A DNA stretch of 64,000 nucleotides from a bacterium (GCA_019637795.1 JAHBUY010000003.1:7409-71408), one strand, 5' to 3'; shown: positions 3,484-62,656, counted from the stretch's first letter. Notes: a model not told the origin generated them from the letters alone. Numbers and translations are program-made.

Positions 3484-3488
3484 CGCCC

Positions 3489-7904: not shown

Positions 7905-8121
7905 CAAGCCGGCCGTCTGGGCGCCGCGAGCGGCGCCCAGACGGAGAAGCGCGGTCCGCGTGCTGCGCGTGCGCGGGCCTTCCAGGTGGGACGGACGCGG
8001 TGGCGCGCCGCAGCGTCGGCGCTGCGCGTTCGTTCTCGGCGCCGGGCTTGCCACGCGGCGGCGGCGGGCGGTCGCGCGGGAGCGCGGCCCGCCAGGGCGC
8101 CAACGCCGCGCGGGGCCCGGG

Positions 8122-9000: not shown

Positions 9001-9161
9001 GGCCGTACCACACCACGATCGCGGCGCGTGGTAAAGGTCGAAGCGACGGAGGCAGGGAGGATCCGGACCGATCGGTCGATCGGCGGCGGCGTCGTGCGAC
9101 ATGGACCATGGAAGCCCGAGACCATGCCGACGGCCGACCGCCGTTCGAAAGGAGATGCCGC

Positions 9162-9519
9162 AATGGCCAACTACGTGGATGGATTCGTCCTGCCGGTGCC
9201 GCGCAAGAACATCGCCGCCTACCGCGCCCTGGCGCGACGGGCCGGCAAGGTCTGGCGCGAACACGGCGCGCTCGCCTACGTCGAGTGCGTCGGCGACGAC
9301 GTCAGGCGCGGCAAGCACACCTCGTTCCCGAAGAGCGTGAAGCTGAAGCCCGGCGAGGTGGTGTGGTTTTCGTGGATCGTCTACAAGTCGCGTCGCCATC
9401 GCGATGCCGTGCTCGCCAGAGTGATGAAGGATCCGCGCCTGTGCGGCACGTCTGCGGCGATGCCCTTCGACGGCACGCGGATGATCTACGGCGGCTTCAA
9501 GGTCGCCGTGGAGTTGTAA
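9162..9519 (+). CDS. DUF1428 family protein
   Basis: MANYVDGFVLPVPRKNIAAYRALARRAGKVWREHGALAYVECVGDDV ... is typical of DUF1428 (from memory). Confidence 0.7.
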
Positions 9520-15128: not shown

Positions 15129-15191
15129 GACGCTCCCCTCCTCCCGACGGCGGCGCGGCGCCCCGGGCACCCCATCGCTGGCGGCGGTGCC

Positions 15192-17563: not shown

Positions 17564-17570
17564 CGCGCGC

Positions 17571-18527: not shown

Positions 18528-18566
18528 GGGAGCCTCCGGGGTGCGCGGGATGCGGTGGGGTCGCCT

Positions 18567-19640: not shown

Positions 19641-21022
19641 GTGGCGGAGGCGAGGAGGCGGGGGCGGAGCGCGGCGGCGAGCGGGGCGCGCGCCGGCCGC
19701 GGCGCGCTCAGCGCGTCGAGCGCGACGCCGAGCCAGAGGAAGGCGTAGAGGGTCGGCACGACCAGGCTGTAGAGGCCTTCGCCGATGCCCGTGAGGGCCA
19801 CGGCGGCGAGCAGCATGAGGGTGTTCCGCCGCAGCGCCGGCGGCCCGGGGGCGCGCGCGACCAGCCAGGCGGTGCGCAGCAGGGCGAAGAGGAAGGCGGC
19901 GAGGGTGAGCGCGCCGCCGAGGTACATGAGGCCGAGGTAGGTCGAGTGGCTGCCCGGCACCATCGTGCCGCCACCGGCCATCACCTGCGGGAAGTCCTCC
20001 GGGTACACCGGATCGCCGGGCCAGCCGTGGCCGAGCAGCGGCGCCGTCGCCAGACCCTCGCGGGTGGCCAGGTAGACGAGATCGCGCGAGCGGGTGGCGC
20101 TCGGCCGCAGGTCGTCGAAGCGCTCGTGCACCCGGTCGACCAGCGCCGTCGGCGTCCCCCAGCCGATGGTGCCGACGATCCCGATCGCCGCGCCGGCGGT
20201 GACCCCAGCGGCCACCAGCAGCCCCTGCACGGCGCGCGGCCAGTCGAGGAAGCGGCGCAGGCCGGCGGTGAGGATGAGCAGCAGCGCCGCCAGGCGGCTC
20301 ATGCTGGCGGCGACCATGAAGAGGCCGCAGCCGATCGCCAGTCGGCGCCGCCAGCGCGCCGGCTCGTTGGCGGCGACGAAGATCAGGCACAGGCCGCCGA
20401 AGCCCATGGCGGTGGTCCACGGGAAGAGCAGCGACAGGCGCGGCAGGAGGACGCCGAACAGCTCCTCCCAATTGTAGAGCAGCATGCCGAAGTAGAACGA
20501 GGTCGACGGCAGGCTCACCGGCAGCAGGCGGCCGATCGGGGTCAGCACGTGCAGGTACTGCCAGCCCTGCGCCAGCGCCAGCGGGTAGAGCACCAGCGCC
20601 AGGGCGGCGCAGGCGTAGCCCACCCGCGCGGCGGCGCGCAGCAGGCGCTGGGCGTCGAGCACGCCGCTGGCGCCGATGGCGATGCAGGCGCCGAGCATCA
20701 GCCAGCCGAGCACGTAGCTGGCGAGCGCGTGGCGCACGATGAGGAACGGCGGCTGCCCGGCGGCGATCAGGTTGGCGCCCGACGAGAGCAACTGGCAGGC
20801 GGCGACCGCGAGCCACGGCCAGGCGAATCCCCAGGCGCGCGGCGACCGCACCGCGAACAGCGCCGTGCCGCCGATCAGCAGCACCGCGCACGGCAGCACC
20901 AGCCCGATCGCCCACAGCAGCGGCAGGGCGGTGAAGTAGGCGACGATCAGCCGCTCGGGGAGCGAGGACCGGCGCATCGGGCGCGGCGCGGGCGCCGCCG
21001 GCGCTGGGGCGCGACCGTCCAT
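19637..21022 (-). CDS. wzy: O-antigen ligase / Wzy-like polymerase family membrane protein
   Basis: The 461-aa polytopic ORF starts at the ATG checked at 21022. The ATGA overlaps the upstream stop. Confidence 0.7.
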   Translation of the reverse strand: MDGRAPAPAAPAPRPMRRSSLPERLIVAYFTALPLLWAIGLVLPCAVLLIGGTALFAVRSPRAWGFAWPWLAVAACQLLSSGANLIAAGQPPFLIVRHALASYVLGWLMLGACIAIGASGVLDAQRLLRAAARVGYACAALALVLYPLALAQGWQYLHVLTPIGRLLPVSLPSTSFYFGMLLYNWEELFGVLLPRLSLLFPWTTAMGFGGLCLIFVAANEPARWRRRLAIGCGLFMVAASMSRLAALLLILTAGLRRFLDWPRAVQGLLVAAGVTAGAAIGIVGTIGWGTPTALVDRVHERFDDLRPSATRSRDLVYLATREGLATAPLLGHGWPGDPVYPEDFPQVMAGGGTMVPGSHSTYLGLMYLGGALTLAAFLFALLRTAWLVARAPGPPALRRNTLMLLAAVALTGIGEGLYSLVVPTLYAFLWLGVALDALSAPRPARAPLAAALRPRLLASAT

Positions 21023-22431
21023 CAGTAGGCGTTCTGCCGCGACAGCACCGCGGGGATGGTCTGCGCCAGGATCTTCAGATCGAGCGCCAGCGACCAGTTG
21101 TCGATGTACTCCATGTCGGAGCGGATCCAGGCGTCGAACTCCGGCGTGCGGCGGCGCACCTGCCACAGACAGGTGATGCCGGGCTTCACGCTGAAGCGGC
21201 GCTTGTGCCAGCGCACGTCGATGCGCTCGACGTCGCGCACCGGCAGCGGCCGCGGCCCGACCAGGCTCATCTCGCCGCGCAGCACGTTCACGAGCTGCGG
21301 CAGCTCGTCGAGGCTGGTGGCGCGCAGCCAGCGCCCGAGGCGGGTGACGCGCGGATCGGCCCTGATCTTGAACACCGGCCCCTCGGCCTCGTTGCGCGCC
21401 TCGAGCGCCGCCTGCAGGCGCTCGGCGTCGGGCACCATGGTGCGGAACTTGAGGGCGCGGAAGCGGCGGCGGTTCAGGCCGATGCGCTCCTGGGCGAAGA
21501 TCACCGGCCCGGGCGAGTCGAGCTTGATGGCGATGGCGATGGCGAGCAGCGCCGGCGCCAGCAGCGCCAGGCCGGCGAGGGCGCCGGCGAGGTCGATCAG
21601 CCGCTTGGCGGCGAGCAGGGCGGCATCGTCGGGGCCGCTGCCGATGGTCATCACCGCGCGCCCGACCAGGCTGTCCGCCGCCGCCCAGGCGCCGGGGACG
21701 ACGCTGAGGTCGGCGAGCAGCCGCACCAGCACGCCCTGCTCCTCGCACAGCGACACCATCTTCGCGACCACCGGCTGCGAGCGGTCGAGCGGGAAGGCGA
21801 GGAAGACCTCGTCGATCGGCTGCCGGTCGAGCGCCGCCTCCAGGCGCACCAGCGCCGCCTGCGCCCGCGCCGCCGCGGTGTCGCCGCTGCCGGCGGCGTC
21901 GATGACCTCGACGATGCGGTAGCCGAGCGTCCCGCGCGCCCCGAGGTCATCGGCGGCGCGGCGCGCCGCCTCGCCCTCGCCGGCGACGATGACGTCGCGC
22001 AGATTGCGCCCGGCGCGGCGCGCCAGCGCGCCGACGGCGCGCAGCAGGCGGCGGCCGGCGGCCAGCAGCAGCACGCTCAGCGCCCACAGCGTCACCGCCA
22101 GCGCGCCGCCGAGGCGCTGGTAGCCGAGCAGCGCGCCGAGCAGCGGCACCGGCGCGGCGGCGAGCGCGGCGGCGAAGGCGACGTCGCGCAGCTCGCGGCT
22201 GGCGGTGGCCAGGCGATACGAGCCGTAGAGCCCGATGCTGGCCAGCGCCAGGTGCCAGTAGAAGAGGTACAGCGCCAGCAGCAGCACCTCGGCGAGGCTC
22301 AGCGAGCGCTCCAGCAGCCCGGGGAGCGGCAGCCCGGCGCTGAGCGCCAGCGCTGCGGCGATGGCGCAGAGCACCAGCAGCAGGTCGACGGCGCCCAGTC
22401 CGGTGAGCAGCATCTGGCGACGTGGGGTCAT
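21022..22431 (-). CDS. exopolysaccharide polyprenyl glycosylphosphotransferase (WbaP/CpsE-type priming sugar transferase)
   Basis: The C-terminal domain is ...FKIRADPRVTRLGRWLRATSLDELPQLVNVLRGEMSLVGPRP ... with TM helices at the N-terminus. Confidence 0.9.
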   Translation of the reverse strand: MTPRRQMLLTGLGAVDLLLVLCAIAAALALSAGLPLPGLLERSLSLAEVLLLALYLFYWHLALASIGLYGSYRLATASRELRDVAFAAALAAAPVPLLGALLGYQRLGGALAVTLWALSVLLLAAGRRLLRAVGALARRAGRNLRDVIVAGEGEAARRAADDLGARGTLGYRIVEVIDAAGSGDTAAARAQAALVRLEAALDRQPIDEVFLAFPLDRSQPVVAKMVSLCEEQGVLVRLLADLSVVPGAWAAADSLVGRAVMTIGSGPDDAALLAAKRLIDLAGALAGLALLAPALLAIAIAIKLDSPGPVIFAQERIGLNRRRFRALKFRTMVPDAERLQAALEARNEAEGPVFKIRADPRVTRLGRWLRATSLDELPQLVNVLRGEMSLVGPRPLPVRDVERIDVRWHKRRFSVKPGITCLWQVRRRTPEFDAWIRSDMEYIDNWSLALDLKILAQTIPAVLSRQNAY

Positions 22432-22460
22432 GCCTCCTCCTCCGTGCGGCCGCGGCCGGT

Positions 22461-22997
22461 TCAGGTGTCGCGGCCCGTCAGCACCACGCCGACGGTGACG
22501 CAGCCGCCCTCGCGCGCGCGCTCGGCGGCGGCGCGCAGGGCGGCGCGCGTGGTGACGCCGGTCTCGGCGACCAGCAGCAGGCCGTCGCAGGCGCCGGCCA
22601 GGAGCACGGCATCGAGCGAGCGCTGGAGCGGCGGCGCCTCGATCAGGCGCAGCGGCGCCGGCGGCTGCGCGTCCAGCCAGGCGCGCAGCGCCGCGCCGAG
22701 CTCCGGCCCGTCGAGCGGCAGCGGCAGTGGCGCCGCGTCGCCGTCGCGCGCCCGGAGCAGCGGCGCGTCAAGTCCGGTCGCGCCCGGCGACGGCGAGCGC
22801 CACCCGCCGTTCCGGCGCCGCCGGCGTAAACCGAAAGAGGTCGGGTGGCGCGCGCCGCGGCTGCAGCGCGTCGACCGAAAGTGACCACCGGTGGGAGAGG
22901 CGCACGGCGCGCCGTCGCGGCGGGCGAGCGCGCAGCCGATCGAGCAGCGCGTCGAGTCTCGGTTTGAGTGGCGGGCGCGGTCGCCGGTCGCCGCCAT
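22461..22997 (-). pseudogene. degenerate BY-kinase-like (CpsD/EpsG-type) C-terminal fragment lacking a Walker A
   Basis: LRLIEAPPLQRSLDAVLLAGACDGLLLVAETGVTTRAALRAA ... VGVVLTG resembles the Walker B to C-terminus of tyrosine autokinases. No P-loop is found in any frame upstream to 23144. Confidence 0.3.
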
Positions 22998-23143
22998 TCA
23001 CGCCGGCGCCGGGTGGCGTCAGGTGTCGCGCGCCGCGAGCGGCTCGCCGCGATCGTTGCCGGCGCCGCGTGGCGCCCGCGGCGCCGGCGGCGCCGCCATT
23101 CGTCCCTCGCGCTCCAGTCGTCGCAAGGCTCGCATGTACGTGC

Positions 23144-23425
23144 TCATCCCTCGTCCCCCTGCCGGTTGGCGGCCGGCGGCACGCGCAACGTGTCGCCGGC
23201 GGTGAGGCGATCGCCGCCGCGCAGCTCCGGATTGGCGGCGCGCAGGCGGCGCACCGCCGCCGGGCCGCCGCTGCCGTAATGGCGGCGGGCGATCGACGAC
23301 AGCGTCTGTCCCTTCCGCACCACCACCACCTGGTCGCCCGGCGGCGGCGGCGCGGCGAGACCCGATTCGAGCCCGGCGTCACCGCCCGGCGCCGGCGCGG
23401 CGGGCGCGGCGGATGCGACCGACAC
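23144..23425 (-). CDS. LysM domain protein
   Basis: VVVRKGQTLSSIARRHYG ... ANPELRGGDRLTAGDTLRVP is a LysM motif. Confidence 0.75.
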   Translation of the reverse strand: MSVASAAPAAPAPGGDAGLESGLAAPPPPGDQVVVVRKGQTLSSIARRHYGSGGPAAVRRLRAANPELRGGDRLTAGDTLRVPPAANRQGDEG

Positions 23426-23567
23426 GGCCGCGGGCGCGGCTGGCGGCGGTGGCGCGCGCAGCGAGCTGAGCGCCGTCGCGGACGCCCGCCGCCGCCAGCA
23501 CGCCGGTGCGGCGCCGCCCAGGCGGCGCCGCGCCGCGCCCGTCGCGGCAGCCAGCGCGCGATCGCCG

Positions 23568-24368
23568 TCAGCGGCGGCTGGCGCGCATCGCCGCCCAGAC
23601 GTCGCCGGCGCGCACGCGCCGGGCGCCGCGGCCGTAGGCGGAGAGCAGCGCGGTGTGCGCCAGGACGTTCAGGCGGCGCGGCAGGCCGCGCGCGGCGACG
23701 ACGAGCAGCGCCCGCGCCGCGGGCGTGAGCAGCGCCGGCGGCGCCCCGGCGCGCGCCAGGCGGTGCGCCAGGTAGCGCGCCGCCTCGCCGGCGGCGAGCG
23801 GCCCCAGGGCGCAGCGATGGGCGACGCGCTCGTTCACCTGGCGCAGGGCCGGGCGGCGCAGGATGGCCGCCAGCTCCGGCTGGCCGACGAGAACGACCTG
23901 CAGCAGCTTCGCCGAGTACGTTTCGAAGTTGGTGAGCAGCCGCACCTGCTCGAAGGCATCGGCGTCGAGGTGCTGCGCCTCGTCGATGACCAGCGCCGCG
24001 ATGCGGCCGTCTTCGGCGCAGCGGCGCAGGAACGCGTGCAGCGCCGCCAGCATCGCCGCCCGGTCGCCGCCGTCGCAGGGCACGCCCCAGTCGGCGAGCG
24101 CCTGCCGCAACAGCGCCGCAAAGCCGAGGCTGGGGTTGGCGAGGTAGGCGGCGGCGATCGCCGGCTCGGCGTCGCGCAGCAGGGCGTAGAGCAGCGTCGT
24201 CTTGCCGGTGCCCACCTCGCCGATCAGGGTCGCCAGGCCGCGCCGGCTCGCCAGCGCGATGCGCAGGCCGGCCAGCGCCTCGGCGTGCGCCGGGCTGGGA
24301 TAGAGGAAGGCCGGATCCGGCGACAGCGAGAAGGGATCGGCGGTGAGCCCGAAATGCGCCTCGTACAT
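23568..24368 (-). CDS. ExeA/GspA-like AAA ATPase (secretion ATPase as in PEP-CTERM/EPS loci)
   Basis: P-loop GEVGTGKTTLL and Walker B LVIDEAQHL are present. The start was checked at 24368. Confidence 0.8.
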   Translation of the reverse strand: MYEAHFGLTADPFSLSPDPAFLYPSPAHAEALAGLRIALASRRGLATLIGEVGTGKTTLLYALLRDAEPAIAAAYLANPSLGFAALLRQALADWGVPCDGGDRAAMLAALHAFLRRCAEDGRIAALVIDEAQHLDADAFEQVRLLTNFETYSAKLLQVVLVGQPELAAILRRPALRQVNERVAHRCALGPLAAGEAARYLAHRLARAGAPPALLTPAARALLVVAARGLPRRLNVLAHTALLSAYGRGARRVRAGDVWAAMRASRR

Positions 24369-24379
24369 GCGCCCCTCCC

Positions 24380-25873
24380 TCACGCCGGCACGCGGCCGAG
24401 CACCGGCAGGCCGCTCGCCGCCTCGGCGTCGCGCGGGCCGCGGATGGTGGGATCGAGCAGCTCGAGCAGCAGCGCGGCGGCGACGGCGAGGCCGAGGCTC
24501 AGGATGCCGGCGAGCACGACGAGCAACAGCCCGTGCGACCGCGCCGGCCGATCGGGCACGACCGCCGGCTCGACCACCGCCAGGTTGACGAGGTGCGAGG
24601 CGTCGAGGGCGCTGCCGAGGCGCGCCTGCTCCTGCTTGCGGGTGTACGTGAGGAAGGCCTCGTTCGCCGCCGCCAGCTCCTGGTCGAGGCGGCTGTTCTC
24701 CGCCGCCACCTGATCGAGGCGGTCGAGCGCCGCCCGGGCCGAGGCGATCTGCGCCCGCAGCGCCTCGGCATGCGCCTGCCGCGCCGCCGCGTCCACCGTC
24801 GCCTGCGCCAGGTCGCCGTCGAGCTGCTGATAGGTCGGGTTCATCGTCGTCGTCGTCTCGGCGATCGTCGCCTGCTCGCGGGCGAGGAGCCGGCGCGCCG
24901 CGGCGAGCTCGCGCTCCACGTCCTGCACGCGGCTGCTGGTCGGCGCGTAGCGCGACAGCAGCTCGTCGCGCTCCATCTCCTTCTCCAGGACGCGCGGCTT
25001 GATGAACTGCACCGCCTGGTTCTGCGCCTGGCGCACCTCCTTGGAGACGGTCTGCGGATGCCGCCGGATCTCGCGCTGCAGGCTGGCCACCCGCGCCGAG
25101 GCGCTGGCCAGCCCGGCCTCGGCGTCCTCCAGGCCGACGCCGAGCTCGATCAGGCGGGCGCGGAGCTGGGCTCGCTGATCGGGCACCGCGTCGAGCCCCT
25201 CGCGGACGAAGAACGCCCGCTTCGCCTGCTCCGCCGCCTGCACGCGCGCCGTCAGCAGGCCGCGCTGCTCGGCGAAGAACGACGACGCCCGCTCCTGCTG
25301 GCTCGCCGCCCCCTGCTGGCTCAGGGCGGCGTCGACCAGGCCGTTGACGAACGCCGCCGCCCACGCCGGGTCGACGCCGCGCTGGCGATAGGCGACGTCG
25401 ATCAGGTTCGTCTTCTTGCGCACCGCCACCGCCAGGTGCTCGGCGACGTCGTCGGTCCACTGGTCGAGCGGGCTCGGCGCCGGTACGCCGTGCAGCAGGC
25501 GGTGCAGGGCGCGCGCCAGCTCGCGCGGCGCGCCGAGCAGCCGCGACAGCAGCCCGCGCGGCGGCATCTGGTCGAGCTGCGGTTCGAGCACGCGGCGGAT
25601 GAGCAGCGGGCTCTGCAGCAGCTCGGCCTGCGAGTTGAGATCCTCCTCGGCCACCCGGTCGATCAGCGGCATCGCCTCGGCGTCGGGCGAGATCGACCGC
25701 GAGCGGGCGGCCGTGACCAGCAGGGTCGCGGTGGACTCGTAGGTCGGCGCCATCGCCAGCGCCAGCGCCGCCATCAGCAGCACGCCGCCGACGCCGACGC
25801 GCAGGATCAGCGCGCGGCGGCGGCGCAGGCCGTCGATCAGGTCGCTCCAGGTGAGCAGCTCGAGCTCGCGCAC
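24380..25873 (-). CDS. wzz: polysaccharide chain length determinant (Wzz/GumC-like), no kinase domain
   Basis: TM helices sit at the N-terminus (LRVGVGGVLLMAALALAMAP) and the C-terminus (LLLVVLAGILSLGLAVAAALL). Between them is a long coiled-coil periplasmic region. Confidence 0.85.
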   Translation of the reverse strand: MRELELLTWSDLIDGLRRRRALILRVGVGGVLLMAALALAMAPTYESTATLLVTAARSRSISPDAEAMPLIDRVAEEDLNSQAELLQSPLLIRRVLEPQLDQMPPRGLLSRLLGAPRELARALHRLLHGVPAPSPLDQWTDDVAEHLAVAVRKKTNLIDVAYRQRGVDPAWAAAFVNGLVDAALSQQGAASQQERASSFFAEQRGLLTARVQAAEQAKRAFFVREGLDAVPDQRAQLRARLIELGVGLEDAEAGLASASARVASLQREIRRHPQTVSKEVRQAQNQAVQFIKPRVLEKEMERDELLSRYAPTSSRVQDVERELAAARRLLAREQATIAETTTTMNPTYQQLDGDLAQATVDAAARQAHAEALRAQIASARAALDRLDQVAAENSRLDQELAAANEAFLTYTRKQEQARLGSALDASHLVNLAVVEPAVVPDRPARSHGLLLVVLAGILSLGLAVAAALLLELLDPTIRGPRDAEAASGLPVLGRVPA

Positions 25874-43050: not shown

Positions 43051-44253
43051 ATGACAGACGCAGTCGCAGCGCCCGCCGCCGAGCGCCCGGTCGGAGTCGG
43101 GCGCGCCCACCGCTACCTCCCCGAGCTCGAGGCGCTGCGCGGCTGGGCCATGCTGTTGGTCTACGCCTTCCATCTCAACGGCACCGTCGTCCGCCGCTCG
43201 GCGGGCACCGCCGACGAACCGACGCCGCTGACCGCGTTCGTGCTCGCCGGCCACACCGGCGTCAGCCTGTTCTTCGTCCTCAGCGCCTTCCTGTTGGCGC
43301 TGCCGTTTCTCGCCGAGGCGGACGGCGGACGGCACGTGTCGCGGCCCGCCTACGCGAGCCGCCGGGCGCTGCGCATCCTGCCGCTCTACTGGTTCGCGAT
43401 CGCCGTCGCCACCATCCTCACCGCCGAGCGACTGGTCGATCTGGCGCGCGCCCTGCCCTACATGTTCTTCCTCAACTCGGTCACCGACTGGTCGACGCCG
43501 ATGCTGCCCTACAGCGGCGCCTGGTGGAGCCTGGGGACGGAGGCGCAATTCTACCTCGTCCTGCCGCTGCTGCCGCTGCTCCTGGCGACGCGCGCCGGGC
43601 GGATCGCCGGCGTCGTGCTGCTGCTCGCCTGGCTCGCCGCGTACGGCGCATTCCTCACCCGCGCCCTGCGCATGGACACCCTCCCCGGACAGGTGCGCCT
43701 CGCCTACTCGCTGCTCGGACGCGCGCCGCTGTTCCTGTGCGGCATCGCCGCCGCCGCGCTCTATCGCCGACACGGCGCCGCCTGGCGGCAGCGGCTCGCG
43801 GCCCGACCGCTGCTGCGCCGCGGCGGCGCCGACGCCATCCTGCTCGCCGTGCTGCTCGCGCTCGGCCTGCTGCTGCAATGGGTGATCGTCGGCACGCCGA
43901 CGCGGGCCGAGGCGCCGCCGCGGCACGTCTGGCACGTCCTGGAAGGCGCGCTGTGGGCGTCCGTCGTGCTCCTCGTCCTCGTCGCGCCGCTGCGCAGCGC
44001 GCGCCTGATCACCAACCGCGCCACCATCTGGCTGGGCGTGCTCTCGTACTCGGTCTACATCTGGCACCTGCCGATCCAGCAGTTCGCCTTCCGCTGGACC
44101 CGCCAGCTCGGCATCCCCCTGCCGCTCGCCTGGAACGCCCGCACGATCGCCGTCGCGGCGGTCGCGACCGCCGCCTGCCTCGCCGTCTCGACCCTCACCT
44201 ACCGCTGGATCGAGCGCCCGTTCCTGACCCGCAAGGAACGGGTGGCCGACTGA
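43051..44253 (+). CDS. acyltransferase family 3 (OafA-like) membrane protein
   Basis: ELEALRGWAMLLVYAFHL ... FFVLSAFLL ... The ORF is 400 aa and polytopic. Confidence 0.85.
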   Translation: MTDAVAAPAAERPVGVGRAHRYLPELEALRGWAMLLVYAFHLNGTVVRRSAGTADEPTPLTAFVLAGHTGVSLFFVLSAFLLALPFLAEADGGRHVSRPAYASRRALRILPLYWFAIAVATILTAERLVDLARALPYMFFLNSVTDWSTPMLPYSGAWWSLGTEAQFYLVLPLLPLLLATRAGRIAGVVLLLAWLAAYGAFLTRALRMDTLPGQVRLAYSLLGRAPLFLCGIAAAALYRRHGAAWRQRLAARPLLRRGGADAILLAVLLALGLLLQWVIVGTPTRAEAPPRHVWHVLEGALWASVVLLVLVAPLRSARLITNRATIWLGVLSYSVYIWHLPIQQFAFRWTRQLGIPLPLAWNARTIAVAAVATAACLAVSTLTYRWIERPFLTRKERVAD

Positions 44254-44298
44254 CCGCGGCCGCGTCCCCGCGAGCGCGGCGAGCGCCAGGTCCTCGCC

Positions 44299-45459
44299 TC
44301 ACTGGCCGGCCATCGTGAACAGCGGCCGCCCCTCGCCCAGTTCGTCGAGCGGCACCGCCTCGACCCGCTCCGCCAGCGCGAAACGCTTGCCGCCGGGGTA
44401 GACCACCGCTACCCGTGCCAGACCGAGATCGTCGAGCGCGATGCGAATGGACGGCGTCAGCCGCGGCGCATCCGTGCGTTTGCACTCGATGCCCAGCAAG
44501 GTGTCGCCGCGACGCAAGAGCAGGTCGATCTCGGCCCCCTGGTGCGTCGCCCAGAAGAACGCCTCGTCGTGCGCTTCGATCGCCAGCACCTGCTCGATCA
44601 CGAATCCCTCCCAGGATGGCCCGATGGCGGGATGGCTCAGCAAGGCCTTGTCGCTGGCGATGCCCAGGAGTTGGTGCAGCAAGCCGCTGTCGCGCACGTA
44701 CACCTTCGGCGCCTTCACCTGGCGCTTGCGCAGGTTGGCGTGCCAGGGCTGGAGCTGTCGAACCATGAAAGCGTCGACGAGTAGGTCGAGGTAGCGGCGC
44801 GCGGTCGATTCGCTCACCCCCAACGCCCGCGCTGGCACGGCGGCGTTCCATAGCCGCCCATGATAGTGCGCCAGCATCGTCCAGAAGCGGTGCAGCGCGA
44901 CCGCCGGCACCCGAACGCCCCACTGCGGCAGGTCGCGCTCCAGCAACGTCTGGATGAGCTGCTTGCGCCAGGCCAGGCTGTCCGCCTCGCTCGCCGCCAG
45001 GTACGACCGCGGCAGCCCGCCGCGGCGCCACAAAACCTGCGCCCCCTCGGCCCCCACCTCGGCCAGCGAGAAGCCGCCCATGGCGATGCGTTCGACCCGC
45101 CCGGCCAGGCTTTCCGAGCTCTGGCGCAACAGATCGCCCGAGGCACTGCCCAGGATCAGGAAGCGCGCCGGCGCCGCGCGCCGGTCCGCCAACACCCGCA
45201 ACGCGGGAAACAGCTCCGGCCGCCGCTGCACCTCGTCAATCACCACCAGACCCTTGAGCGGCCGCAGCGCCGTCATCGGCTCGTCCAACCGCGCCAGGCT
45301 GGCGGGATCCTCCAGATCGAAGTAATTGGCGGACTCCTCGCTCAACAGCTCGCGCGCCAGCGTCGTCTTCCCGCACTGCCTCGGCCCGACCAACAAGACG
45401 ATCCGGCTGCGCTGCAGCGCGGCGGTCAGAGCCGTGAGGAGAATGCGGCGAGTGACCAT
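44299..45459 (-). CDS. AAA-family ATP-binding protein with DUF4143 C-terminal domain
   Basis: P-loop GPRQCGKTTLA and Walker B LVVIDEVQ are present. The ORF reaches 45477; the start is probably M7. Confidence 0.8.
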   Translation of the reverse strand: MVTRRILLTALTAALQRSRIVLLVGPRQCGKTTLARELLSEESANYFDLEDPASLARLDEPMTALRPLKGLVVIDEVQRRPELFPALRVLADRRAAPARFLILGSASGDLLRQSSESLAGRVERIAMGGFSLAEVGAEGAQVLWRRGGLPRSYLAASEADSLAWRKQLIQTLLERDLPQWGVRVPAVALHRFWTMLAHYHGRLWNAAVPARALGVSESTARRYLDLLVDAFMVRQLQPWHANLRKRQVKAPKVYVRDSGLLHQLLGIASDKALLSHPAIGPSWEGFVIEQVLAIEAHDEAFFWATHQGAEIDLLLRRGDTLLGIECKRTDAPRLTPSIRIALDDLGLARVAVVYPGGKRFALAERVEAVPLDELGEGRPLFTMAGQ

Positions 45460-45696
45460 GGACCCAGAACATACCACGAAAATCGATCATCATGAGGCGG
45501 ATTTTCATGGGTGAGCCATCCGGGGATCGCAAAGGGCCGCTGGCGACCGCCGCTTGACGCGCAATCCGGATCTCTCCGGTCCGTCGCGGCCACGCAGGCC
45601 CGTCCCTCGCCGCCCCGGGGTCGTGAGCGGCGCGGCACCCGCCACCGTGCGCGCGGCCGATCATTCGCTGGTGCCAACAGTGCCCGCCGTGTGACA

Positions 45697-48312
<2,616 letters not shown>

Positions 48313-48530: not shown

Positions 48531-50561
48531 ATGACCAAGTACGCGACGCGCTTGCTCCTGGCCGCCGCCATGGCGGCGCTCGTACCGGCCCATGCCGGGG
48601 CGCTCGAACGCGCCATCTACCTGCTGAGTCAGACGGCGCGCGGCTATGCCGCCGAGGGGCGCAGCGAGGGGACGGCGGTCGACGGCAACGGGCTGCTGAG
48701 CGTCTACAACTCCAACGCCATCAACCTGACCTCGCCACCGCAGACGACCTCGCGCAATCAGGTCTACCTGCGCGACCTCGACGAAACCGCCTCGTCGCTG
48801 GTCAGCAAGGCGCCGGACGGCAAGGCCGGCAACCGCCCCAGCCAGTCGGGGGGCTTCGCGCCGGGCATCAGCGCCGACGGGCGGTTCGTCGCCTTCTCGT
48901 CGCAGGCCACCAACCTGGTGCCCGACGACACCAACGGCCTCGAGGACGTCTTCGTGGCCAACGTCGCCACCGGCGAGGTCGAGCTCATCAGTCGCGGCAT
49001 CGACGGCCCGGCCAACGGGGTCAGCGGCTTCCCGCGCCTGAGCGCCGACGGCCGCTACGTCGTCTTCCAGTCGGCGGCCAGGAACCTGGTGGCCGACGAC
49101 ACCAACAACGTCACCGACATCTTCCTCTACGATCGCGCCGAAGGGATCATGCGCCGGGTCAGCGTCGGCAGCGACGGCGCCCAGGCCAACGGCGCCAGCA
49201 TCACGCCGGCGATCAGCGACGACGGCCGCTACGTCGCCTTCGCCTCGCGCGCCACGAATCTGGTGAACCCGTCGCCGAGCGACGCCTTCGAGCAGATCTA
49301 CGTCGCCGACTGGGAGACGCAGTCGGTGCAACTGGGGTCGGTGAACGACCAGGGCCAGGCCGCCAATGCGCGAAGCTTCCTGCCCGACCTGACCGCCGAC
49401 GGCGGCGAGGTGGCGTTCAAGTCGGAAGCGTTCAACCTGGTTCCCAACGACACCAACGGCGTGCCCGACGTCTTCGTCCGCAACCTCACCACCAACACCA
49501 CGCAGCGGGTGAGCGTCGACGACTTCGGCAACCAGTCGAACGGCCTCAGCGGCGGTCCCGGCATCAGCGCCGATGGCCGCTTCGTCGCCTTCGCCTCGTT
49601 CGCCTCGAACTTCGTGCCCGACGACGGCAACGGCTTCAGCGACGTCTACGTGTACGACCGCTTCCCGCCGGGACGGAACCAGGGCCGGATCGCCCGCGTG
49701 ACCATCGCGTACAACAACTTCGGCGAGCCCGACCAGGGCGTCGCCGACTTTCCGGTCAGCATCAGCGCCGACGGCCGCTGGATCGGCTTCGCCTCCGCCG
49801 CCTCGAACCTGGTGCCGAACGATCTCAACAACGATCTCGACGCCTTCCTCGCCTGCAACCCGTTCGACGCCTTCCAGTGCGCGGCGCCGACGCCGACCCC
49901 GACGCCGACGGAGCCGCCGGCGGAGCTGCCGTGCGTCGGCGACTGCAGCGGCGACGATCAGGTCACCATCGACGACCTCATCCGCATGGTGAACATCGCC
50001 CTCGGCCTGCGCGGCGTCTGCGGCGACGACCAGGGCATGGGCGCCTGCCTGGCCGGCGACGCCAACTGCGACTGCCAGATCACCGTCGAGGAGATCATCC
50101 AGGCGGTGAACAACAGCCTCATGGGCTGCGCGACCTTCGACGTCTGCCCGCTCGCCGAGCACGAGATGATCTGCTGCGCCGGCGGCCCGGCGACGCCGAC
50201 GGCGACCCGCACCGCGACCATGACGCCGGACGGCGGCGCGCCGACCGCCACCGCGACGCCGACGCCGCCGGCCACGCCGACCGCGACGACGAGCGGCCCG
50301 AGCGGCCCCTGCGTCGGCGATTGCAACGGCAACGGCACGGTGACCGTCGACGACCTGATCCGCATGGTCAACATCGCCCTCGACCTGCAGCCGTTGTGCC
50401 CCGGCGAGGGCGGCGGCGGCTGCCTGGCGGGCGACGCCAACTGCGACTGCCGCATCACCGTCGACGACATCATCCGCGCCGTGAACAACAGCCTGGGCGA
50501 CACGTGCACCGACTTCGGCGCCTGCCAACTGTCGGAGCACGCGGCCCAGTGCTGCGGCTAG
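48531..50561 (+). CDS. secreted protein with PD40/TolB-like beta-propeller repeats and two C-terminal dockerin-like modules
   Basis: A signal peptide is present. More than 6 repeats follow the pattern GxSxDGRxVAFxSxAxNLVPxDTNxxxDVFV. After Thr/Pro-rich linkers come two modules, each with paired Ca-loop-like segments (GDCSGDDQVTIDDLIRMVNIAL and GDANCDCQITVEEIIQAVNNSL). Confidence 0.7.
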   Translation: MTKYATRLLLAAAMAALVPAHAGALERAIYLLSQTARGYAAEGRSEGTAVDGNGLLSVYNSNAINLTSPPQTTSRNQVYLRDLDETASSLVSKAPDGKAGNRPSQSGGFAPGISADGRFVAFSSQATNLVPDDTNGLEDVFVANVATGEVELISRGIDGPANGVSGFPRLSADGRYVVFQSAARNLVADDTNNVTDIFLYDRAEGIMRRVSVGSDGAQANGASITPAISDDGRYVAFASRATNLVNPSPSDAFEQIYVADWETQSVQLGSVNDQGQAANARSFLPDLTADGGEVAFKSEAFNLVPNDTNGVPDVFVRNLTTNTTQRVSVDDFGNQSNGLSGGPGISADGRFVAFASFASNFVPDDGNGFSDVYVYDRFPPGRNQGRIARVTIAYNNFGEPDQGVADFPVSISADGRWIGFASAASNLVPNDLNNDLDAFLACNPFDAFQCAAPTPTPTPTEPPAELPCVGDCSGDDQVTIDDLIRMVNIALGLRGVCGDDQGMGACLAGDANCDCQITVEEIIQAVNNSLMGCATFDVCPLAEHEMICCAGGPATPTATRTATMTPDGGAPTATATPTPPATPTATTSGPSGPCVGDCNGNGTVTVDDLIRMVNIALDLQPLCPGEGGGGCLAGDANCDCRITVDDIIRAVNNSLGDTCTDFGACQLSEHAAQCCG

Positions 50562-50582
50562 GCCGGGTTAGAGGAGGCTCCC

Positions 50583-51494
50583 ATGAAGCGTCTCGCAGGC
50601 GTCGTCGGCACCGTCGCGGCGGTGCTGTTCTGTTCCGCCGCCGCCCGCGCGGCGATCATCTCCTGTGGCAGCGTCACTGCCGTGCGCGGCAGCTCCGCTC
50701 CGGTGACGATCTCCCTCCAGCTCGAGGGAGACGAGGTCGTCGCCGGCACCCAGAACGACCTCCAGTTCGACAGCGACGCGTTCGACATCGCGCCGCGGGA
50801 CTGCGTCATCAATCCCGCCATCGGACCCGACACCGAGGCCGACAAGACCCTGAGCACCAGCCTGCCGCCGGGCGAGATCCCGAGCGTGCGCAACCTGGTG
50901 GTGGCGCTCGACAACACCAACGCCATTCCCTCCGGAGCGCTCTACACCTGCAGTTTCCACGTCCGCGGCAGCGCCGAGCTCGGCGAGCACGTCCTCACCA
51001 ACGTCAACGTCCGCGCCAGCAACCCGCAGGGCATGGTCGTCCCGACCACCGCCGGCGACTGCACGATCACCGTGCAGGACGTGTCGCCGACCCCGACTCC
51101 GCGCTGCACCAACGACGACGACTGCCCGAGCGGCGAGGTGTGCGTGAACAACACCTGCGTCACCGCCACGCCGACCAGGACCCCGATCGGCTACTGCACC
51201 GGCGACCGCGACTGCCCCAACGGCCAGGTGTGCGTGAACAACATGTGCGTCACCCCGACGCCGACCCGCACCCCGATCGGCTACTGCACCGGCGACCAGG
51301 ACTGCCCCAACGGCCAGGTGTGCGTGAACAACATGTGCGTCGCCGTCACGCCCACCGCGACGAGGAAGAGCGGCGGGGGCGGGGGGTGCAGTTGCGAGAT
51401 CGATCCCGGCGCCCGCGGCCGCAGCGGCGACGTGCTGGCGGTGCTCCTGCCGGCGCTGATCCTGGCGCTGCGCTGGCGGCGGCGCCGCGCCTGA
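50583..51494 (+). CDS. cell-surface protein: cohesin-like N-terminal domain, three Cys-rich repeats, MYXO-CTERM-like sorting tail
   Basis: A signal peptide is followed by a cohesin-like beta-sandwich segment (SAPVTISLQLEGDEVVAGTQNDLQFDSDAFDI ...). Three copies of CTxDxDCPxGxVCVNNxCV are separated by TPTPTRTP linkers. The tail is GGGGGCSCEID ... VLAVLLPALILALRWRRRRA. Confidence 0.65.
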   Translation: MKRLAGVVGTVAAVLFCSAAARAAIISCGSVTAVRGSSAPVTISLQLEGDEVVAGTQNDLQFDSDAFDIAPRDCVINPAIGPDTEADKTLSTSLPPGEIPSVRNLVVALDNTNAIPSGALYTCSFHVRGSAELGEHVLTNVNVRASNPQGMVVPTTAGDCTITVQDVSPTPTPRCTNDDDCPSGEVCVNNTCVTATPTRTPIGYCTGDRDCPNGQVCVNNMCVTPTPTRTPIGYCTGDQDCPNGQVCVNNMCVAVTPTATRKSGGGGGCSCEIDPGARGRSGDVLAVLLPALILALRWRRRRA

Positions 51495-60180: not shown

Positions 60181-61359
60181 TCACGAGCCGCTACGCACAG
60201 CGCGAACGTAGTAGCTGCTGGTGCGGCCGCCCAAGTCCACGTACCCATGGCCGAAGGACGGCAGCCACACGTAGAGCGGATCGGGCGCGGAGGTAGTAGC
60301 AGACCAATGGTGGCTGGACCGCGTGCACGAGCACGCCGCGTTCGTGATGTCGGCGCACGCAACGCCGCAGCTCCCGCCGTCGAAGGCCACGTCGACCACC
60401 GGCGGCGTGGTGTCGGCATAGTCGAGAATGCCCTGCAGCTCCTGCAGCCTCGGCACGCGCCAGTCGTTGTGGCCGGCGAAGTTGGCGCTGTTGAGATCGG
60501 CGGCCCAGGTCCAGATAGTGGTCGACTGGTTGCAGGTGCCGTCGCCGCCGGTGCACTCGTCGCAGCCGGTGGTGCCGCCCTCGGCGTTGGCGGCGCACAG
60601 CGTCGCCGCCGCCGCCGCCGGCTGGCAGAACTTGCTGGTGTTGACCGTGCAGGTGCCCGACCACGGGTAGTAGTTGTCGGCGTCGTGCGGGTTGGCGAAG
60701 TCCGGGTTGTAGTCGAGCTTGACCTTCTTCTCCCACTGCAGGCCGCTCTGGTTGTCGGTGACCGTCCCGTCGGCGTTGTCGGCGAAGCGGGCGTTCCAAC
60801 AGCCGCTGGTGTCGAAGACGCAGCCGCTGCCGCAGCGCAACACGCCCCCGACGTAGCCCTCGGTGGCGCAGGTGGCGCCGTTGAGGGTCCCCAGATCGCA
60901 CTGCTCGCCGCCGTCGATGGCGCCGTTGCCGCACAGCTCGGCGGCCACCAGGTCGGTCTCGCAGGTGTCGAGGTCGGTGGTGCAGGTGGTCAGCTCGTCG
61001 TTGCACTGCTGCACCGGCGGCGGCAGGCCGCCGCCGGCCAGCGCCGTCGCCAGCGCGTCGGTGTACTCGCCGATGAACGCCTGGATCGCCGCCTGGTCGC
61101 CGTTCGACGGGCACATGCCGCCGCCCGCCGCCTCGGTCTTGCCCCACTTGCCGGCGAATCCGGCGTCGCACTTCGAGAAGTCCGGCGCCCCGCCGCTCTG
61201 CGCCGCCTTGGCCTCCGCCTTCAGGCGGCAGAAGTCGTACTTGCCGGCCAGCTTCAGCTTGCCGGCCTGGCACTTCTCGGCCGGCGTCACCGCGCCAGCG
61301 CCGCCGGCGAGCGCCAGGCTCGCCAGGACAAACCCGTACCGCAGCAGATGTTCCATCGC
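60181..61359 (-). CDS. secreted/lipoprotein with Myxococcus-type cysteine-rich repeats and C-terminal DUF1566 (Lcl-like, C-type-lectin-fold) domain; putative DGR target protein
   Basis: Signal peptide MEHLLRYGFVLASLALAGGAGA. Repeats CGNGAIDGGEQCDLGTLNGATCATEGY ... CGSGCVFDTSGCW. DUF1566 motifs TVTDNQSGLQWEKK, NYYPWSG and DWRVPRLQELQGILDYA, ending ...HHWSATTSAPDPLYVWLPSFGHGYVDLGGRTSSYYVRAVRSGS. Confidence 0.75.
   Translation of the reverse strand, partial: AMEHLLRYGFVLASLALAGGAGAVTPAEKCQAGKLKLAGKYDFCRLKAEAKAAQSGGAPDFSKCDAGFAGKWGKTEAAGGGMCPSNGDQAAIQAFIGEYTDALATALAGGGLPPPVQQCNDELTTCTTDLDTCETDLVAAELCGNGAIDGGEQCDLGTLNGATCATEGYVGGVLRCGSGCVFDTSGCWNARFADNADGTVTDNQSGLQWEKKVKLDYNPDFANPHDADNYYPWSGTCTVNTSKFCQPAAAAATLCAANAEGGTTGCDECTGGDGTCNQSTTIWTWAADLNSANFAGHNDWRVPRLQELQGILDYADTTPPVVDVAFDGGSCGVACADITNAACSCTRSSHHWSATTSAPDPLYVWLPSFGHGYVDLGGRTSSYYVRAVRSGS
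60184..60324 (-). other. variable-repeat (VR)-like 3' segment of the DUF1566 gene (partner of the TR-like copy)
   Basis: Aligned with 59571..59707, there are about 33 differences in 137 nt. About 22 fall where the TR copy has A (coding sense), and every AAC codon of the TR is changed. A GC hairpin (60127..60152) lies 29-54 nt downstream of the stop. Confidence 0.6.
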
Positions 61360-61787
61360 GTTCCCCCTCCAGGCAGTGTCAGTGATCGCCGACCCGATGC
61401 CTCTCATCGGGCGCTCATCTTTCTCTCATCCAGCGTCGCGGGGAAGGCAACCTAGGGAAAACCCTGATCACCGCGAGAGCCGGCCGGGGATGCTCGAGCG
61501 TCGGTCGCGAGCCCGGGCGCTGCCGGGCGGTCGATCACGACGGTCACCTGGAGGACCGCGCCGGGGACGAGACGGTCGGCCAGGGCGCCGCGCCGCGTGG
61601 CCGCGCCGCACTCCGGGCGCGGTCGAACGGCAACCGCCGGCGGCGCCCGGCGGACCTGGAGACCCGCGCTGCGGCCCCGCCCCGCCCGCTGTCCCCCGCC
61701 GGCGGGCGAAAGGTTTGCCAACCCCCACCTGGCCTGGTACTGCTGCTCTTTAATTTTTGCCCCACCCCCTCATCAAAAGGAGAGCCT

Positions 61788-62656
61788 TCGTGAAAGCACA
61801 ACTGCAGCGGATCGGGTTCCTCGCCGTGGCCGTGGCCGGCATGGCCTACGCGACGGCGGCCCTGGCGGACGACGCCACCAACCAGAAGATCATCGACTAC
61901 TACCGGCGCAAGTCGAACCTGCCGCCGGAAGTGGCCGTGACGGTGACCAACGTCACCGACGCCAAGATCCCCGGCGCCAAGCAGGCGACGTTGAACCTGT
62001 CGCGCGGCGGCCAGACGCAGACCGAGGAGATCCTCATGTCCGCCGACGGCCGCTACGTGGTCTTCGCCGAGGTCGAGGACATCACCTCCGATCCGTTCAA
62101 GGCGATCGCGTCGAAGATCAAGACCGACAACTCGCCGGTCCGCGGCCCGAAGGACGCGAAGGTCACGATCGTCGAGTTCTCCGACTTCCAGTGCCCGTAC
62201 TGCGCCCGCGCCCATCAGACGATGAGCGAGCAGGTGATGAAGGAGTACGACGGCAAGGTGAAGCTGGTGTACAAGAACTTCCCGCTCGGCTTCCACAAGT
62301 GGGCCGAGCCGGCCGCCATCGCCGGCGCCTGCGCCTACCAGCAGGATCCCGCCGCCTTCTGGACGTTCTACGACTACATGTTCAACAACCAGCAGCAGAT
62401 CACGCCCGAGAACGTGAAGGAGAAGTCGCAGGAGGCGCTGAAGGGCACGAAGGTCGACATGGCGAAGTGGAACGACTGCTTCGACAACAAGAAGACCCTC
62501 GAGAAGGTCAAGGCGGACATGGCCGAGGGCGGCGCCGTGGGCGTCACCGGCACGCCGGCCTTCATCATCAACGGCCGCAAGATCAGCGGCGCCCAGCCGT
62601 TCCAGAACTTCAAGGCCGTCATCGACGACGAGCTGGCGCGCTCCGGCAAGAGCTGA
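61788..62656 (+). CDS. DsbA-family thiol:disulfide oxidoreductase (GTG start after AAGGAG RBS)
   Basis: CPYC active site (FSDFQCPYCARAH), a signal/anchor sequence, and a thioredoxin-fold C-terminus. Confidence 0.85.

Follow-up and report, generated by a model that had tools for sequence, protein, structure and literature searches.

To our knowledge, almost everything known about the pairing of cohesin and dockerin modules, a non-covalent protein interaction that ranks among the strongest known and is much exploited by synthetic biology, comes from the cellulosomes of Gram-positive bacteria. Two adjacent genes at positions 48531-51494 of a 64,000-nucleotide stretch of DNA from an uncultured Binatia-type bacterium (GCA_019637795.1 JAHBUY010000003.1:7409-71408; hereafter the window, always meaning the whole stretch) raise the question of whether such a pair can operate outside any cellulosome, as a tether of the cell envelope. 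A first-pass annotation made from the sequence had read the upstream gene (here gene A) as a beta-propeller ending in two Cys-rich dockerin-like modules, and its neighbour (gene B) as a cohesin-like domain followed by three Cys-rich repeats and a tail resembling the MYXO-CTERM sorting signal. The follow-up analysis reported here confirmed all of the sequence features so described, with one small correction, supported the reading of them, and indicates that A and B form a two-gene operon which probably serves as a non-cellulosomal cohesin-dockerin tether of the cell envelope.

Domain composition of the two proteins

Family-level searches and structure prediction both bear on the N-terminal domain of B. 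The Pfam Cohesin model (PF00963) matched 47 of 69 members of the B family at E<=0.01 (best 3.5e-7), and a search of the B-family profile against the sequences of the PDB returned, over the N-terminal domain, only cellulosomal cohesins (best 5n5p_A, E 7.8e-4; 6kg8_A aligned across profile positions 21-173). The AlphaFold2 (AF2) model, built from 69 sequences, was all-beta, with predicted local distance difference test (pLDDT) values of 96-98 over amino acids (aa) 22-165, and displayed the nine-stranded flattened beta-sandwich (jelly-roll) of ~140 aa typical of a cohesin. When that domain was compared with the PDB using Foldseek, the top 50 matches were all cohesins, led by 6kgc_A (E 1.6e-10, template modelling (TM) score 0.82), with target-normalised TM scores of up to 0.84 and identities to the solved cohesins of 9-20%. 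The cohesin-like beta-sandwich originally proposed for the start of B is thus borne out: the predicted fold is established as that of a cohesin, and in terms of sequence the domain appears to be a divergent member of the Cohesin family.

The dockerin identity of the two modules that end A is also supported, less strongly than the cohesin identity of B. Each module of ~86 aa contains two 12-residue loops with a helix after each, as first described, and exactly 10 Cys residues, a richness that had already been remarked upon as unusual. Ca2+-ligand positions 1, 3, 5 and 12 are intact in all four loops (D1, N/S3, D/N5, D/E12), and each module accordingly displays the two tandem ~22-residue segments of Ca2+-loop plus helix that are characteristic of a type I dockerin. 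A six-frame regular-expression scan of the 64 kb for the loop-helix motif produced four matches, all of them inside gene A, and the same pattern is conserved, along with all 10 Cys residues, in 40 orthologs of A. Among 75 related modules, 39 matched the Pfam Dockerin_1 model (PF00404) at E<=0.01 (best 1.8e-6). Nearly all also matched single-loop EF-hand models, as would be expected of F-hand repeats, and A itself weakly matched EF-hand_6 with 23.1 bits as a full protein and 29.7 bits as a C-terminal fragment.

The AF2 model of the modules (pLDDT ~79-95 for module 1, 88-96 for module 2) exhibited the order loop-helix, short helix, loop-helix, and then an extra C-terminal helix bearing the last Cys. 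Single type I dockerins among its fold matches reached TM scores of 0.55-0.68 at 21-31% identity and a probability of up to 0.96. The two modules are 64-66% similar to one another, and each is 69-70% similar to its positional orthologs; this near-equality suggests a shared partner specificity. The 10-Cys modules constitute a distinct and strictly conserved dockerin subtype, which was recovered in its full form only in orthologs of A or in fragments of these.

The remainder of A, joined to module 1 by a Pro/Thr linker, is the PD40/TolB-type beta-propeller that had been anticipated. The Pfam PD40 model (PF07676) scored 51.1 bits against a cut-off of 20.9, and six clear blades with the motif [ST][AD]DG..V.F.S, at aa 114, 171, 229, 288, 346 and 412, are accompanied by one degenerate N-terminal blade. 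The protein is not TolB itself, as the NCBIfam model TIGR02800 scored only 24.2 bits against a cut-off of 343. A search of protein representatives with a profile comprising the 659 columns of the full-length propeller returned 64,405 cluster representatives, a figure which reflects the size of the PD40 propeller family and not that of the dockerin module.

Downstream of the cohesin domain, B carries the three repeats of the CTxDxDCPxGxVCVNNxCV type noted initially, and these belong to the family TIGR04201 (Myxo_Cys_RPT), whose model matched over three stretches with 30.5 bits where the cut-off is 25; Pfam DUF7107 scored 70.5 bits against 24.6. Repeat models matched 62 of the 69 members of the B family, and the repeats of B were modelled as small beta-hairpins. 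There are three copies in B of the window (303 aa), four in most orthologs (~334 aa) and five in the most divergent, from which the length of the putative stalk is predicted to vary between lineages.

The tail of B, GGGGGCSCEIDP...LAVLLPALILAL-RWRRRRA, can be resolved into GGGGG-CSC-EIDP, a 9-aa spacer, the hydrophobic run LAVLLPALILAL and the terminal RWRRRRA, and consequently shows the tripartite layout of a MYXO-CTERM signal: a Cys motif, a hydrophobic segment and an Arg-rich end. The motif C-[SNG]-C-E-I-D-P, followed by a spacer of ~9 residues and a Leu-rich run, was present in 77 of 81 relatives of B; in all 77 of these the hydrophobic run contains a Pro (P290, invariant in the alignment of the B family) and is followed by at least 3 Arg or Lys residues. 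The NCBIfam MYXO-CTERM model (TIGR03901) matched 39 of the 69 B-family members at E<=0.1 (best 2.8e-5), and many B homologs have been named 'MYXO-CTERM domain-containing protein' by JGI. Kindred tails, for example ...DDDGC...WLLLxPAAxLLWLRRR, are carried by more distant cohesin anchors.

Coordinates of genes A and B and of the features within them (nucleotide positions in the window)
Feature	Position	Strand	Details and basis
Gene A	48531..50561	+	Open reading frame (ORF); 676 aa, span including stop codon
Signal peptide of A, aa 1-24	48531..48602	+	MTKYATRLLLAAAMAALVPAHAGA; recognised by eye: basic N-terminus, hydrophobic core, AHA-G site
PD40-type beta-propeller of A	48663..49865	+	Pfam PF07676, four stretches
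Dockerin-like module 1, aa 466-552, 10 Cys	49926..50186	+	Loops DCSGDDQVTIDD, DANCDCQITVEE; extra C-terminal Cys-rich helix
Inter-module Pro/Thr linker, 39 aa	50187..50303	+	AF2 pLDDT <60; length varies among orthologs
Dockerin-like module 2, aa 592-676, 10 Cys	50304..50558	+	Loops DCNGNGTVTVDD, DANCDCRITVDD
A-B intergenic spacer, 21 bp	50562..50582	+	GGAGG ribosome-binding site at 50573-50577
Gene B	50583..51494	+	ORF; 303 aa, span including stop codon
Signal peptide of B, aa 1-23	50583..50651	+	MKRLAGVVGTVAAVLFCSAAARA; sequence; low-confidence helix at aa 5-15 in the model
Cohesin domain of B, aa 24-165 (142 aa)	50652..51077	+	Fold and family hidden Markov model
Three Cys-rich repeats of B, C-x5-C-x5-C-x4-C	51096..51344	+	CTNDDDCPSGEVCVNNTC, CTGDRDCPNGQVCVNNMC, CTGDQDCPNGQVCVNNMC; Pro/Thr linkers between
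C-terminal sorting-signal-like tail of B	51372..51491	+	GGGGGCSCEIDPGARGRSGDVLAVLLPALILALRWRRRRA

Conservation of the pair and the wider repertoire in Binatia

A and B form a two-gene operon, as evidenced by their common strand, the short gap between them and its GGAGG site. Both ORFs were recovered in the same frame at the coordinates given originally; the adjacency of the genes was confirmed, and only the size of the gap, previously put at 22 bp, had to be amended to 21 bp, the ATG of B lying 22 nt past the stop codon of A. Their third-position G+C content (0.95-0.96) is that of the other genes of this 72% G+C window. The two proteins are identical to the NCBI entries 'PD40 domain-containing protein [bacterium]' (A) and 'hypothetical protein KF840_10210 [bacterium]' (B) of a metagenome-assembled genome, on a contig of 944,497 bp, and relatives at 52-67% identity carry the label Candidatus Binatia (Ca. 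Binatia). The architecture of A is retained in 40 orthologs of 650-720 aa each, and ~80 relatives, several of them named Ca. Binatia, show the full architecture of B. Chance can be discounted as the origin of these features, since at least 40 orthologs retain the loops, the tail and, in each module, all 10 Cys residues.

The pairing of A with B is itself deeply conserved. Agreement in the size of the longest contig linked 27 pairs of A and B homologs, two of which also have consecutive NCBI locus tags, and adjacency was seen directly at the loci L001-L004, L127 and L128. In L001-L004 and L127, where the identity of B is 47% and 41%, the gene order was gatA-gatB-PALP-(variable)-A-B-infA-hemB-cobA/hemD-hemC-hemA; in L128, where it falls to 36%, the order was still gatB-A-B, and gatB stands upstream of the pair in every locus seen. 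The A-B gap was 22-26 bp in L001-L004 and wider in the other two loci, L127 (65 bp) and L128 (130 bp). This conserved gene order indicates that A-B is a core operon that has been inherited vertically and occupies a housekeeping locus. Where the pairs diverge most, a single Cys-rich dockerin in A faces a single cohesin, with five Cys repeats, in B, which points to one dockerin plus one cohesin as the minimal conserved unit and to the two-module form of A as a later duplication.

The interval of ~5.3 kb that separates PALP from A in the window (43051-48312) has no counterpart in the syntenic loci L003, L004 and L127, and its position is taken by a BON-domain gene in L001 and L002. Its genes code for an Acyl_transf_3 protein, for an ATPase of the AAA_14/DUF4143 type, which is on the minus strand, and for a protein of 933 aa in which a flavin monooxygenase is joined to an alpha/beta-hydrolase (esterase).

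Cohesins and dockerins also recur together in other arrangements. At sister locus L005 (Ca. Binatia isolate La2_metabat2.097, 3463-7494) an 834-aa PD40 protein is followed 34 bp on by a two-cohesin protein. The former combines Cys repeats, an internal dockerin-like module, a cohesin and a C-terminal dockerin, and scored above the Pfam cut-offs for both Cohesin (28.5 against 24.1 bits) and Dockerin_1 (24.5 against 22.9 bits); the latter, of 497 aa, has two cohesin-like domains and the tail GGGGGGGCNC...RRRRR. At locus L006 (JGI 3300055072, 3556-9163) three genes ending in dockerins flank a cohesin anchor in a four-gene cluster. The dockerin-bearing products are an FG-GAP propeller, a Peptidase_S8 subtilase and an adaptor-like protein of 321 aa whose start is cohesin-like, and the tail of the anchor, DEDDGC...WLLLVPAAALLWLRRRAR, is of the DDGC...RRR type.

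Abundant in Binatia-type sequences is a simpler 4-Cys module, CVGDCNGDGxVTVDEILTMVNIALGN..C.AGDANxDGxITVDEILTAVNNALNGC, which is ~55% identical to the modules of A over the dockerin core. A DNA scan of genome contigs with ATGGTSAACATCGCSCTSG returned at least 120 loci, ~94 of which were chance matches in other GC-rich phyla; genuine dockerin modules were present at at least 26, and of the 26 listed 19 were labelled Ca. Binatia and three 'Deltaproteobacteria'. Several metagenome-assembled genomes (MAGs) had at least 3-6 dockerin-bearing ORFs each, one of them at least six. Also among the matches listed, genuine 4-Cys modules occurred at L086, L089, L091 and L105, the labels of which are Terriglobales, Phycisphaerae, Margulisiibacteriota and Myxococcales; these occurrences outside Binatia could represent either a real spread or contigs that have been mis-binned or mislabelled.

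The proteins that bear such dockerins are varied, and include an MtrC/MtrF-like multihaem cytochrome, a phosphoesterase, DUF3604 proteins, Kelch and FG-GAP propellers, beta-helix proteins, lectin/Lcl_C proteins and proteins that combine a B-type cohesin with a dockerin. The cytochrome (L109:4327-6774 (+), Ca. Binatia GcC5-6) is an 816-aa protein with ~8 CxxCH motifs and Pfam matches to Cytochrome_C7 and to MtrC/MtrF domain II/IV, which ends in a Pro/Thr linker and a 4-Cys dockerin; its make-up hints at a cohesin-dockerin assembly of proteins of extracellular electron transfer. In three further proteins (L091:191-2260, L112:3856-5562 and L118:4441-6285) a beta-helix or Cys-rich domain precedes a B-type cohesin, judged by eye from the signature ...QND..FD...C..NP..., and a C-terminal dockerin, a layout that would be adaptor-scaffoldin-like; a Pfam scan of the L091 protein gave no match. 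Another protein with a B-type cohesin and a dockerin is encoded at L006:4932-5894. An Lcl_C (DUF1566) protein is encoded in the window itself at 60181-61407 (-), and in another Binatia MAG (L056:2075-4432 (-)) a domain of this type shares one fusion protein with a lectin-like domain and a 4-Cys dockerin in an internal position. On the evidence of these comparisons, the A-B operon is the conserved core of a larger, lineage-specific cohesin-dockerin repertoire.

Elsewhere in the window a Cas4-Cas1 fusion (3291-5321 (+); Cas_Cas1 281 bits, Cas_Cas4 57.7 bits) precedes a CRISPR array extending from 5538 to ~7900, with 33 copies of the 36-nt repeat CCTTCCGCGGCTGAACAGCCGCGGCCTCATTGAAGC at a period of 70-75 nt from start to start. 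A polysaccharide-synthesis cluster at 13929-25873 encodes a GT4 glycosyltransferase, a Polysacc_synt flippase, a sulfotransferase and a Wzz-like chain-length protein.

The proposed tether and its alternatives

The domain identities of A and B are accordingly taken as shown, that of the dockerins less firmly than that of the cohesin, and the adjacency of the two genes and the recurrence of dockerin/cohesin clusters have been observed directly; from these we infer the surface tethering suggested by the first-pass annotation, together with the physical binding of A to B, its Ca2+ dependence, the processing of the tail, the surface exposure and final location of the complex, and the ligand of the propeller. 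According to this proposal A and B would both be exported by Sec, and the hydrophobic segment near the C-terminus of B would at first retain it in the inner membrane, leaving the Arg-rich end on the cytoplasmic side. Lipidation would follow, on the model of MYXO-CTERM proteins, at one or other of the conserved Cys residues in GGGGC[SN]CEIDP, the helix would be cut off by a CPBP-type intramembrane protease, and the lipid-anchored B would be moved to the outer membrane or the cell surface. The pathway described for such proteins consists of Sec export, Cys lipidation, cleavage by the CPBP protease myxosortase and surface display dependent on type II secretion (T2SS), and an Lgt-like enzyme has been proposed to lipidate MYXO-CTERM cysteines (PMC11980579). 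At the locus of P0084 (JGI 3300056388), which encodes a distant cohesin anchor whose tail reads ...CDDGC...RRR, two Lgt-family genes (PF01790) were noted ~2 kb downstream of the anchor.

The 3-5 disulfide-bonded Cys repeats and their Pro/Thr linkers would act as a stalk that keeps the single type-I-like cohesin off the membrane. The dockerins of A would be F-hand pairs charged with Ca2+, each secured by as many as five disulfides, and would plug into this cohesin and so display the PD40 propeller on B; since its two dockerins are nearly equivalent, a single A could engage two B molecules, resulting in avidity or cross-linking. In other words, A and B probably hang a non-enzymatic protein on the envelope by means of the 'plug and socket' of cellulose-degrading machines. 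A gene for a DsbA-like thioredoxin-fold protein (61757-62656 (+); Thioredoxin_4, 128 bits) lies 10 kb downstream of the pair, and may be relevant because A and B together contain ~40 Cys residues that are likely to be disulfide-bonded.

A number of results weigh against this proposal. When the window proteins were scanned directly, B gave no match to Pfam Cohesin at E<=1, and hence did not reach the gathering threshold, and A scored 12 bits with Dockerin_1, below the cut-off of 22.9. The dockerin assignment suggested at the outset consequently holds at the level of the family and not for the window copy. A search of the PDB sequences with a profile of 33 modules gave nothing significant (best E 0.42, with a type I dockerin on top) and mixed dockerins with EF-hand proteins and Cys-driven noise (muscleblind zinc fingers). 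The Foldseek comparison of the C-terminal model of A with the PDB spoke for a dockerin in its matches, 20 of 21 being dockerins and none a calmodulin-type EF-hand protein, but its E-values were weak (0.09-5), as is usual for a domain of ~65 residues. Taken alone, the direct scans of A and B with Pfam and NCBIfam would have led to a wrong rejection, and family-level scans plus folds were needed. At that level neither of the grounds for refutation named in the first-pass annotation applied: there was model support for both the cohesin and the dockerin, and the predicted folds were those of a cohesin and, less certainly, of a dockerin.

The tail is subject to comparable reservations. B scored 15.3 bits with TIGR03901, below the cut-off of 20; the Pro in its hydrophobic helix breaks a stated feature of MYXO-CTERM, and its host lies outside the Myxococcota. 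MYXO-CTERM is described as having an invariant Cys, often as GCGC, and a transmembrane helix devoid of charged residues and Pro, and JDVT-CTERM as having a single Cys and a Leu-rich helix after DP (Haft, bioRxiv 10.1101/2023.06.07.544157). JDVT-CTERM (NF033191) gave no match to B at E<=1. The likeness to MYXO-CTERM perceived earlier therefore survives as a resemblance and not, given the score, the Pro and the EIDP, as membership: the tail appears to share the tripartite Cys-bearing logic of these signals while being a clean member of neither class, and may, in combining features of the two, represent a separate, undescribed one. Neither a CPBP protease nor type II secretion genes were found in the 64-kb window, and PD40/TolB-like proteins are classically periplasmic. 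The many other dockerin-bearing proteins in these genomes imply that B might not be specific for A. Co-variation of cohesin and dockerin, assessed by a partial Mantel test corrected for propeller divergence (r 0.36-0.38, p ~0.001), did not exceed the negative control, sorting tail against dockerin 2 (r 0.39, p 0.0005), and was on that account rejected as evidence and attributed to residual phylogeny.

Three other explanations have to be set beside the tether. The abundance of the 4-Cys modules, their likeness to those of A over the dockerin core, the diversity of their cargo, the MAGs with several dockerin-bearing ORFs and the existence of proteins with both a B-type cohesin and a dockerin would all suit a general hub, whereby B accepts the common 4-Cys dockerins and A is just one of its clients, or the 10-Cys dockerins of A dock on other cohesins such as those of the adaptor-like proteins. 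We regard this as unlikely, in that the modules of A are a distinct subtype confined in full to A orthologs and their fragments, and that A and B are still adjacent where B identity has fallen to 36%, with one-to-one modules in the most divergent pairs, as for a dedicated pair; a hub and a dedicated pair are not, though, mutually exclusive. With regard to location, A and B might instead constitute a periplasmic complex on the inner membrane, the tail being a plain transmembrane anchor that is never cleaved or lipidated and B serving to hold a TolB-like PD40 protein at a fixed distance. The typical location of PD40/TolB proteins and the weak TolB match, the sub-threshold tail with its Pro, and the missing sorting protease and T2SS genes of the window are consistent with such a complex, and disulfide-rich domains, with a DsbA-like gene in the window, fit the periplasm just as well. 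It is rendered improbable by the near-invariant GGGG-C-[SN]-C-EIDP motif (77/81), for which a mere anchor would have no need, and by the Gly/Asp-rich run and Cys of unrelated cohesin anchors, which it leaves unexplained; moreover, an invariant Cys beside a transmembrane helix and an Arg cluster is the signature of sorting signals processed by CPBP proteases, and the dockerin cargo at sister loci includes an MtrC/MtrF-like cytochrome of outer-surface type and subtilases.

The most doubtful of the three, and in our estimation very improbable, is that there is no direct interaction of A with B, the modules of A being only Ca2+-binding, disulfide-stabilised structural or ligand-binding units, the cohesin-like domain an adhesin or spacer, and the adjacency of the genes a matter of co-regulation. 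Single-loop EF-hand models do outscore Dockerin_1 on the modules of A, the sequence and fold statistics for dockerin are weak, and many non-cellulosomal cohesin-like and dockerin-like modules reportedly have no demonstrated partner (Peer et al. 2009). The fold matches, however, were to dockerins and not to calmodulin-like proteins, and the two types of domain co-occur gene by gene in at least three architectures, which would be an odd coincidence in the absence of binding.

Beyond the tether formed by A and B, a broader arrangement is possible rather than probable, namely a disulfide-reinforced cohesin-dockerin network of the envelope that extends throughout Binatia and a few related uncultured lineages and rests on an undescribed class of Cys sorting signal. 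Anchors, adaptor-like proteins with cohesin plus dockerin, and dozens of dockerin-tagged cargoes would assemble in a modular fashion, with A-B as the universally retained, dedicated core pair marked by an orthogonal 10-Cys dockerin. The layout of the signal may be a Gly/Asp run, C(xC), a spacer, a Pro-containing Leu-rich helix and RRR.

Three elements of the system appear to be new: the fixing of the pair as a core operon of two genes in synteny, a Cys anchor of MYXO-CTERM-like type carried by a stalk like that of the receptor TraA, and the 10-Cys dockerin subtype. A-B would offer, in an uncultured and probably diderm lineage, a cohesin-dockerin couple that is minimal, paired in nature and syntenic, in which an unusual disulfide-locked dockerin, as a candidate orthogonal and oxidation-stable binding pair, is combined with a different anchoring chemistry. 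Because the anchor and its partner stay side by side, with conservation reaching down to 36% identity, whether and where non-cellulosomal cohesins and dockerins bind becomes directly testable with two small recombinant domains. The findings also suggest how Binatia may decorate their envelope, the dockerin-tagged MtrC/MtrF-like cytochrome being one example, and raise the possibility that a new class of C-terminal sorting signal exists beyond the Myxococcota.

Comparison with known systems

A cellulosome was considered and rejected: B has one cohesin, A carries a PD40 propeller as its cargo, the genes around the pair include gatA/B, hemB/C/D and infA, and no glycoside hydrolases were present among ten dockerin-bearing or neighbouring proteins scanned. 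The pair consequently does stand outside a cellulosomal context, as had been claimed, with a single cohesin, a non-enzymatic cargo and housekeeping neighbours. Its closest cellulosomal counterparts are OlpA and OlpC of Clostridium thermocellum, in which one type-I-like cohesin on an envelope anchor likewise captures single dockerin proteins; their cohesins (3ul4_A, 4dh2_A, 4dh2_C) were among the top fold matches of B, and the duplicated Ca2+-loop/helix segments of their type I dockerin partners recur in the modules of A. By way of contrast, the anchor of B is a Cys-type tail on a Cys-repeat stalk in a probably diderm host, in place of the SLH module that holds theirs to a Gram-positive wall. 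The cargo here is a propeller rather than a carbohydrate-active enzyme, the dockerins have 10 conserved Cys residues and an extra C-terminal helix, and partner and anchor are encoded in one operon.

The top fold match of the C-terminal region of A was the double dockerin of C. thermocellum Clo1313_0689 (8x39), which also has two tandem C-terminal dockerins. Superposition of the pair gave a root-mean-square deviation of 16 Å (E 0.087); the modules of A are split by a flexible linker of 39 aa and were not modelled as a packed unit, and divergent orthologs of A have only one.

In overall organisation B resembles TraA of Myxococcus xanthus, a protein sorted by the myxosortase MrtX, which similarly consists of an N-terminal recognition domain, a TIGR04201 stalk and a tail of Cys, transmembrane helix and Arg residues. 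The TraA model weakly matched 41 of the 69 B-family members by way of the repeat region. The possibility that B is a TraA receptor of outer-membrane exchange (NF033759) was nonetheless rejected, the score being 13.8 bits against a cut-off of 750 with a match confined to aa 170-271. The N-terminal domain of B is a cohesin where that of TraA is a PA14-like variable domain, the partner gene encodes a dockerin protein in place of TraB, CxC-EIDP and a Pro-containing helix set the tail apart, and the host is not a myxobacterium. With the JDVT-CTERM/MrtJ system B shares a conserved Cys followed by 'DP' and a Leu-rich segment, its second Cys recalling the GCGC of MYXO-CTERM; the gene adjoining B, unlike the corresponding gene of that system, encodes a dockerin protein and not a CPBP protease.

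Cohesins and dockerins outside cellulosomes have precedents, a survey of which was reportedly made by Peer et al. in 2009, and binding between the two has been verified in Archaeoglobus. The non-cellulosomal cohesin of Archaeoglobus fulgidus (2xdh) was fold match number 5 of B. Large repertoires of both modules have been described in ANME archaea (PMC9012536), and a hypothetical 'planctosome' in Planctomycetes (PMC6461901). A literature search found no link of Binatia or Binatota with dockerin, and the principal paper on the genomics of Binatota makes no mention of either module. The present system is akin to these non-cellulosomal repertoires in placing the modules on proteins unrelated to cellulose breakdown, in its lineage-wide expansion, and in a varied cargo that includes multihaem cytochromes and peptidases. 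It differs from them in that the pairing is fixed as a syntenic core operon, that the dockerins are rich in disulfides, and that the anchor is a MYXO-CTERM-like tail in place of an S-layer, lamin-tail or transmembrane domain.

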